This document shows positions 1 through 222 of a stretch of DNA of 222 bases, piece by piece. Origin of the DNA: Escherichia coli. Lineage in GTDB: Bacteria > Pseudomonadota > Gammaproteobacteria > Enterobacterales > Enterobacteriaceae. The notes under the pieces were generated by a model. The model was not told the DNA's origin. It made no database searches and was given only the letters and a program-made list of their open reading frames with translations. The stretch's first letter is position 1. Every line of letters starts with the position of its first letter. The stretch lies in the NCBI RefSeq assembly GCF_003334335.1, contig NZ_QOWQ01000238.1. One strand, 5' to 3'. Both the position numbers and the translations under genes were made by a program.

Positions 1-80
1 AATAAAACAATCATCAAATACAGAATTTTCGTAGGCTGAGGGATTGCTGAAAATAATTTAGTGCGTCCTTCAATGGTCAT
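1..80 (-). CDS. Possible 5' end of a protein-coding gene running off the window (N-terminus MTIEGRTKLFSAIPQPTKILYLMIVL...); product unknown
   Basis: The reverse complement has ATG at 80-78 followed by 26 stop-free codons to the window edge. The peptide ends in a hydrophobic stretch (ILYLMIVL) compatible with a membrane segment. Against: no Shine-Dalgarno upstream (sequence before the ATG is cagcacaatctg), G at first codon position is low (4 of 26), and the frame is also open upstream of the ATG, so the start is ambiguous. A second in-frame ATG lies at 14-12. Confidence 0.2.
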   Translation of the reverse strand, partial: MTIEGRTKLFSAIPQPTKILYLMIVL

Positions 81-118
81 CAGATTGTGCTGATGTAAAC
101 AGTTAAGCACAATTTGAT
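79..118. repeat. Imperfect inverted repeat (13-bp arms, 14-nt spacer); candidate operator or RNA stem-loop
   Basis: Read directly: 84-91 ATTGTGCT is the exact reverse complement of 106-113 AGCACAAT. Pairing extends to 79-91 against 106-118 with one G/T mismatch (83 vs 114), which would be a G-U wobble in RNA. The stem is AT-rich with only 3 G-C pairs in the perfect 8-bp core. An 8-bp inverted repeat alone is not rare in AT-rich DNA, so function is uncertain. Confidence 0.4.
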
Positions 119-137
119 TATTTGACTTTCTTCTTTT

Positions 138-153
138 TGTGACTGACTTCACA
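138..153. promoter_or_regulatory. CRP-family (cAMP receptor protein) binding site with perfect core TGTGA-N6-TCACA
   Basis: Read directly: TGTGA at 138-142, 6-bp spacer CTGACT at 143-148, TCACA at 149-153, centre between 145 and 146. This matches both consensus half-sites of the established CRP motif. The 22-bp context 135-156 is tttTGTGActgactTCACAatt with AT-rich flanks. A rough estimate puts chance occurrence of both perfect half-sites at this spacing in a window of this size and composition well below 1 in 1000. Binding is not demonstrated. Confidence 0.55.
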
Positions 154-222
154 ATTAAAGATGTAACCGTATACAAATTGTTGATGAATAAAGAGACAGC
201 ATAAGTGGCAGGCCAGTCGTAA

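Follow-up and report, generated by a model that had tools for sequence, protein, structure and literature searches.

A predicted CRP site in the distal part of the upstream region of prophage eib genes in Escherichia coli

Genomic context and distribution

The window analyzed here is a stretch of 222 nt of Escherichia coli DNA with a G+C content of 34.2%. It is located in an intergenic region of lambdoid prophages, between a gene resembling tail-fibre-assembly genes (DUF4376) and eib, and is the distal part (-409 to -188 from the ATG) of one form of the eib upstream region, here called type A. At 94-100% identity, the window is found in 71 places in 27 of 5,426 complete E. coli genomes, with one to five copies per genome that are without exception chromosomal. 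In addition, it matches eight phage records, including prophage P-EibA of strain ECOR-9 (AF151091). The best matches are those to E. coli S1-CAM-02-A (100%) and to P-EibA AF151091 (98.6%). This region has been present in GenBank since 2000, with no annotation attached to it.

The gene order is the same in all annotated copies and consists of gpJ, lom, the tail fibre gene, DUF4376/orf-191, a gap of 681-806 nt, eib and orf-156, with every gene on the plus strand. When eib was examined as a possible moron, it was found together with orf156 beyond the conserved phage genes, and co-directional with them, in all annotated copies. The eib ATG follows the window in 54 of the 55 copies with sufficient downstream DNA, 186-188 nt past the window end. 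The eib open reading frames encode 356-466 aa, and a YadA-type anchor ends 31 of the 34 complete ones; three of the 34 are truncated (12-108 aa). The downstream gene is annotated as a 'YadA C-terminal domain' protein and is the gene of the Eib immunoglobulin-binding trimeric autotransporter adhesin. In AF151091, a stem-loop is annotated after eibA. In two of the phage/prophage copies, an IS21-family element splits the DUF4376 gene just upstream of the eib cassette (L001 3183-5490; L003 626-2928).

The position of the eib ATG and the plus-strand orientation of the neighbours indicate that this is a one-directional upstream region and not a divergent one. An earlier reading of the window, made from its letters alone (the sequence-only reading), had proposed regulatory DNA whose target lies outside the window, with any plus-strand gene beginning after position 222, and eib is indeed found there. 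The same reading had considered a divergent control region, to be checked from the orientation of the flanks. This suggestion did not hold, as DUF4376/orf-191 upstream and eib downstream are both plus-strand in every annotated copy and no divergent promoter is conserved across upstream types.

More copies were gathered with an exact 22-mer anchor, resulting in 8 viral and 47 metagenome loci. An earlier pattern for viral contigs that included the spacer of the predicted CRP (cAMP receptor protein) site gave zero matches, because the window has a minority G at position 145. The 22-mer CCGTATACAAATTGTTGATGAA is also present at 1192-1213 of L017, a Nitrosomonas metagenome-assembled genome that is the anchor's sole match in the reference-genome collection, and at 7486-7507 of the metagenome contig L024. 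Both were rejected as chance matches inside a gene, with no flanking similarity; judged by eye, this gene is a candidate motB-like gene. Another metagenome contig, L051, contains positions 115-222 of the window alone (at 1161-1268), and about 60 nt past the window end a different sequence takes the place expected for the remainder of the eib leader. L051 is either a rearranged copy or an assembly artefact.

Features of the window

The three plus-strand frames of the window contain five, seven and eight stops, respectively, with a longest open run of 84 nt, and no ATG, GTG or TTG is present after the final stop in any of them. This agrees with the sequence-only reading, in which every plus frame was described as broken by stops. 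The sole complete open reading frame of at least 20 aa is a 21-aa frame starting with GTG at 139-204, which is without a ribosome-binding site. Small open reading frames annotated in the PhiR12_1 and PhiR5_2 records sit in variable sequence. Consensus scans of both strands of the window revealed neither a sigma-70 promoter nor a terminator-like hairpin, the latter as the earlier reading had noted, and a tRNA/tmRNA search was negative. The following features were assigned, in window coordinates:

1-222, plus strand: distal part of the type A eib upstream region, non-coding, assigned from genome and phage matches and the eib ATG downstream.
1-222, minus strand: stop-free frame, part of an open stretch from L001 6330 to 5691, judged to be no functional gene.
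17-33, plus strand: 17-mer AATACAGAATTTTCGTA, with a perfect second copy 176 nt upstream in copies with a 114-nt insertion.
69-79, plus strand: 11-nt unit TTCAATGGTCA, in one, two or three tandem copies in an alignment of 41 unique copies.
79-118, no strand assigned: inverted repeat ATCAGATTGTGCT / AGCACAATTTGAT, its two 13-nt arms separated by 14 nt, in type A only.
135-156, no strand assigned: predicted CRP site, with its core at 138-153 and its centre at 145.5.
163-166, plus strand: GTAA, invariant in five upstream types and exactly 9 nt past the CRP core.

Within type A, the window is almost invariant from about position 22 on in the 41 unique copies aligned. Window copies are 87-100% identical, with mismatches that come largely from the 11-nt repeat. 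The variable features are two haplotypes at 4-17, scattered SNPs, a 2-nt deletion, the 11-nt repeat and the CRP spacer positions 144/145. Tandem Repeats Finder reported a period of 11 and 3.5 copies in L038. Each TTCAATGGTCA unit adds approximately one helical turn, upstream of the CRP site. In some copies (L003/L004/L005/L008), the 114-nt insertion adjoins the window on its left; it looks like a partial duplicate of the neighbourhood and has the perfect 17-mer AATACAGAATTTTCGTA in common with window positions 17-33.

For the inverted repeat at 79-118, a role as a protein site and one as an RNA hairpin are both conceivable. Its predicted fold is -17 kcal/mol on the plus strand (z = -3.0) and -11.8 on the minus strand (z = -2.4), and the G83-T114 pair would form a G-U wobble in RNA of the plus strand but not of the minus strand. 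None of the 41 unique copies varies within the repeat, and hence there is no covariation to test. A clear counterpart was not found in the other eib upstream types.

Over the window-equivalent positions 100-400, the copies share a mean pairwise identity of 98-99%, compared to 91-96% in the eib anchor and 87-96% in orf-156, while less than 40% of the passenger domain is alignable. The non-coding upstream DNA (L001 6100-6400) is therefore better conserved than any coding part of the cassette (L001 6410-7726). The arrangement has the appearance of a regulatory head that stays the same in front of adhesin alleles that can be exchanged, and the passenger domain is hypervariable. As the type A copies are nearly uniform, comparison within the type cannot single out functional elements; the comparison between upstream types is more telling.

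The predicted CRP site and its conservation

The core TGTGACTGACTTCACA at 138-153 is a perfect match to TGTGA-N6-TCACA (10/10 positions). The expected number of perfect core matches per window is 0.01, and one of 200 shuffles had one. Downstream of its centre, the eib ATG follows after 264.5 nt and a conserved -10-like hexamer, TATAGT, after 114.5 nt. In the 41 unique type A copies, the half-sites are invariant and variation inside the site is confined to the spacer, at positions 144 and 145. The window spacer CTGACT is the minority form among type A copies, CTAACT being the commoner one.

The window is absent upstream of eibC, eibD and eibE (ECOR-9), of the eib gene of phage GER2 and of several chromosomal eib-like genes, and only the proximal 150-165 nt or so are common to type A and the other upstream types. 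Positions 1 to about 95 have no counterpart among the other eib upstream types and are a variable, type-specific spacer. Each of five upstream types has, however, a CRP-like core that matches at 9 or more of the 10 positions, located upstream of the ATG by 261.5-276.5 nt and of the hexamer by 113.5-116.5 nt. The distance from the stop codon of the upstream gene to the CRP site varies from 102 to 542 nt across types. The intergenic region is only 363-374 nt long in the short upstream types, and in the C/D/E and L073 types, approximately 100-115 nt, mostly terminator, lie between the CRP site and the upstream gene.

When the types are anchored on the CRP site and compared without gaps, between-type identity reaches 0.85 in the core, as against 0.33 for the spacer and 0.42 for the 40-nt flanks. 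The left TGT and the right T, C, A and final A of the core are invariant, and the fourth positions of the left and right half-sites differ in some types. The chance of a core with at least 9/10 matches in a slot of six positions is 1-4.5 in 10,000 shuffles per type. The five types share ancestry, and the sites are therefore conserved rather than independently evolved. The sequence-only reading had taken the CRP site to be meaningful, which the retention of core and spacing in five diverged upstream types bears out. Judged from these comparisons, the perfect core looks functional, and the pattern clearly bears the evolutionary mark of a CRP site that is under constraint and whose position matters.

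The GER2-type upstream regions contain a second CRP-like core, AGTGATGCCTGTCACA (9/10), 89 bp upstream of the conserved core (L068 3926-3941, with equivalents in L070 and L071).

The accessible literature on eib makes no mention of an eib promoter, a regulator binding site or CRP. No earlier description of the CRP site or of its fixed spacing seems to exist, and the element itself is of an ordinary kind.

Promoter and leader between the window and eib

The proximal elements shared between type A and the other types are the -10-like hexamer, an AT-rich hairpin, a CATCAGA...TCTGATG hairpin, TTTGTATACA and the ribosome-binding region. In type A, the first conserved -10-like hexamer is TATAGT at L001 6260, and the variants across types are TATAGT, TACAGT, TAATGT and TACACT. 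No conserved -35 was found upstream of it in the five-type comparison. A second conserved -10-like hexamer (TATATT, CATATT or TAAAAT) is present in the loop of the AT-rich hairpin, 137.5-145.5 nt from the CRP site. This hairpin has an 11-bp stem, is located at L001 6269-6306 and encloses the second hexamer; AF151091 annotates a stem_loop here. Just 5' of the first hexamer, a perfect palindrome, GTGATATCAC, is found at L001 6244-6253, and it is also present in the GER2 type.

Neither strand was found to carry a canonical sigma-70 promoter at a distance that would make the CRP site class I or class II, and a home-made sigma-70 matrix gave weak promoters only, none at a canonical distance. Use of the right half-site as a -35 element (TTCACA-16-TATACA) was rejected, as this arrangement is not conserved in the other upstream types.

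In the leader, the CATCAGA...TCTGATG hairpin (L001 6337-6364; alignment A1 columns 73-100) is found in most upstream types. It is retained in L072 through changes on both sides of two counted pairs. Covariation of this hairpin is weak, with 84% of the cells paired and a value that was equalled by 39 of 500 shuffles, for a hairpin that was self-defined. RNAalifold gave nothing convincing on the eib leader. The element TTTGTATACA, at L001 6375-6384 and about 30 nt before the eib ATG, is essentially invariant in the five types, while its surroundings have diverged; the one exception is a T-to-C change in the type A copy L007.

The leader also contains an unannotated upstream open reading frame of 25 aa (L001 6322-6399; window-equivalent 322-399), with the majority sequence MRAARHQIFFIYPMLNCFICIQIIL. 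A strong AGGAG ribosome-binding site precedes its ATG by 7 nt, and it ends 10 nt before the eib ATG. In type A, the frame is mostly intact; three copies are extended to overlap the eib ATG (ATGA) and one is frameshifted. A similar frame is present in the L072 and L073 types and absent in the GER2 and C/D/E types.

Proposed function and alternative explanations

The window is probably the distal half of the eib control region, with the CRP-cAMP site at 145.5 as the functional element that helps to activate eib; we hold this reading to be likely, with considerable room for doubt. In this model, eib would be a moron, the term for an added gene that brings control signals of its own, placed where the late operon ends in lambdoid prophages. 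CRP would bind at 145.5 when cAMP is high in the absence of glucose and would help to activate the eib promoter, which would lie downstream of the window. Because this promoter has a -10-like hexamer and no recognisable -35, it is probably activator-dependent. Transcription starting about 12 nt after the beginning of the first hexamer would place CRP near -126, and use of the second hexamer would place it near -152, compared to -41.5 for class II and -61.5, -72.5 and so on for class I promoters. A position of about -126 is unusually far for direct activation by CRP. The tight spacing of 113.5-116.5 nt suggests a helical-phase-dependent role of CRP as a distal co-activator. Such a role might involve DNA bending, contact with the alpha C-terminal domain of RNA polymerase, or a partnership with a second activator acting close to the promoter, for which the published IbrAB factors are candidates; perhaps CRP also counters silencing of this AT-rich DNA.

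Published observations on Eib physiology fit activation by CRP. Static stationary-phase cultures in LB, to which no sugar is added, have the highest Eib levels, and the two media that contain 1-2% glucose give lower ones (PMC5450701). The authors of that study ascribed the effect of the medium to nutrient limitation and not to glucose (PMC5450701). It has also been shown that eibG with 168 bp of upstream sequence, from which the whole window is excluded, complements an eibG mutant when carried on multicopy pGEM (bioRxiv 10.64898/2025.12.25.695649). Expression thus does not strictly need the window, although the complementation may be due to vector promoters and copy number.

A different protein may bind TGTGA-N6-TCACA, for example a prophage or island regulator such as IbrB or a member of the CRP/FNR family, or CRP may repress eib or shape the DNA without activating it. 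The non-canonical activation distance of the site is consistent with this idea, as is the GTAA kept unchanged 9 nt past the core, which may be a sign of a composite site. In addition, ibrAB is reportedly needed for eib expression in K-12 lysogens. However, the half-site positions are constrained while the spacer is free, the site in the window is perfect, and the FNR consensus TTGAT-N4-ATCAA does not fit. We consider a protein other than CRP, or a non-activating CRP, unlikely.

The near-identity of the type A copies may also reflect recent spread or recombination between co-resident prophages, so that, beyond the CRP site, the window would have no regulatory role and would act as a homology 'linker' beside the hypervariable eib gene. 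The contrast between the upstream DNA (98-99% identity) and the eib passenger (less than 40% alignable) and the presence of one to five copies per genome point in this direction. The left part of the window tolerates the 114-nt indel, one to three repeat units and two haplotypes and is missing from the other types, and the 168-bp fragment is enough on a plasmid. A homology linker does not account for a CRP site whose core and spacing are conserved from type to type, and we consider it rather improbable as an account of the whole window. For positions 1 to about 95, it is compatible with activation by CRP and does not exclude it.

The CRP site might also, or instead, drive an unannotated leftward transcript, which would make this a divergent region after all. 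Terminator-like GC hairpins are found at L001 5736-5753, 5817-5842 and about 5861-5885, with one more inside the 114-nt insertion. They lie between DUF4376 and the window and carry an A-run on their plus-strand 5' side, by which they are oriented as minus-strand terminators. The orientation of those at L001 5736-5753 and about 5861-5885 and in the insertion would suit a transcript ending on the DUF4376 side, as would the symmetry of the CRP site and weak minus-strand promoter-like matches in the window. On the other hand, the minus strand has no promoter at class I or class II distance, nothing upstream of the CRP site is conserved across types, and the 100-115 nt, mostly terminator, of the C/D/E and L073 types leave little room for a leftward promoter. 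The whole-window fold of the minus strand is no better than that of shuffled sequence (z = -0.3), Rfam gave no match, and the hairpins are equally explained as insulators that end the late operon. We consider a leftward transcript very unlikely.

The sequence-only reading had also raised a discrete small transcript, which is not borne out. Rfam searches gave only noise, with nothing better than E = 4 for the window and nothing that reached E = 0.1 across L001 5500-6600. The whole-window fold of the plus strand (z = -1.7), like that of the minus strand, is not significant, and positions 1 to about 95 are type-specific. A self-contained small RNA is not supported, with neither a promoter nor an intrinsic terminator in the window and no match to a known RNA family. 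The overall picture given by the earlier reading thus stands for non-coding regulatory DNA with a meaningful CRP site and lacks support for the divergent layout and the small transcript.

That reading had overlooked the stop-free minus-strand frame across the window. Because of this frame, the label 'non-coding' needed testing. The openness of the frame is statistically odd: the open stretch spans 197 codons, a length reached by none of 2,000 dinucleotide shuffles, and 640 nt contain two stops in this frame against 11 and 15 in the other two. Gene callers predict products of 100-252 aa here. The tests for an intact frame, for selection and for homologues elsewhere all came out against coding. 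Of 52 unique copies, half (26) are interrupted by a stop at window position 4, and the frame is shifted by the 11-nt repeat and the 2-nt deletion. SNPs are distributed 31:21:24 over the codon positions, with 21 synonymous and 55 not, which is neutral-looking. Searches of 5.8 billion proteins and 1.84 billion representatives gave same-locus sequences only, and PHROG and Pfam searches gave no match. The frame also crosses the terminator hairpins, enters the 3' end of the DUF4376 gene and is missing from the short upstream types. It is thus most improbable that the window lies inside a real or recently decayed minus-strand gene (up to 210-252 aa) overlapping the eib control region, and the description as AT-rich non-coding DNA survived these tests.

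Activation of eib through the CRP site can be extended to a broader proposal, which is tentative. Eib might be under direct catabolite control through a phase-fixed CRP, about 126 bp upstream of a promoter without a -35, that needs a second factor, for example IbrAB, against silencing. One head, 98-99% identical between copies and placed before hypervariable eib alleles on several prophages of one cell, could then let a single host signal switch on a set of surface variants together, with the 11-nt repeat (one to three copies) tuning expression by helical turns. We regard this as possible but doubtful.

Significance

Eib proteins bind immunoglobulins, make cells resistant to serum and bring about chain-like adhesion in LEE-negative Shiga-toxin-producing E. 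coli, and the accessible literature calls the regulation of eib complex. The conserved CRP site offers a testable link between host sugar availability and the expression of a prophage-borne adhesin. Such a link would account for the high expression of stationary-phase cells in rich medium that contains no sugar. In recent constructs, the 'native upstream region' is 168 bp long and does not reach the conserved CRP site.

Comparison with known systems

Distal CRP sites are known from other promoters. At proP P2, CRP at about -121.5 reportedly co-activates with Fis. A putative CRP site at -117.5 has been described for guaB (PMC2885671). The eib region resembles both: its CRP site is close to the consensus and would be centred more than 100 bp before the start site, and its promoter would rely on other factors too. 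In addition, proP P2 is a stationary-phase promoter, and Eib is induced in stationary phase. The predicted distance in eib (about -126 or about -152) is slightly larger than in these two cases.

In the pap system, a CRP site in the papI-papB region lies at about -215 from papBA, acts in a helical-phase-dependent manner and is thought to counter silencing. Both systems combine an adhesin gene in AT-rich, horizontally acquired DNA with a distal CRP site. However, papI and papB are truly divergent, whereas the neighbours of eib are co-directional. The pap system also features phase variation via Lrp and Dam methylation.

The lom and bor genes are listed together with EibD as morons of lambdoid prophages (PMC8065619). 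Like these genes, eib is an extra gene next to the tail-fibre genes where the late operon ends, with a terminator hairpin before it and its own stem-loop after it, and it is AT-rich and prophage-expressed. It differs from them in its hypervariable gene and in an upstream region that is unusually long (363-806 nt) and modular and that carries a conserved CRP site.
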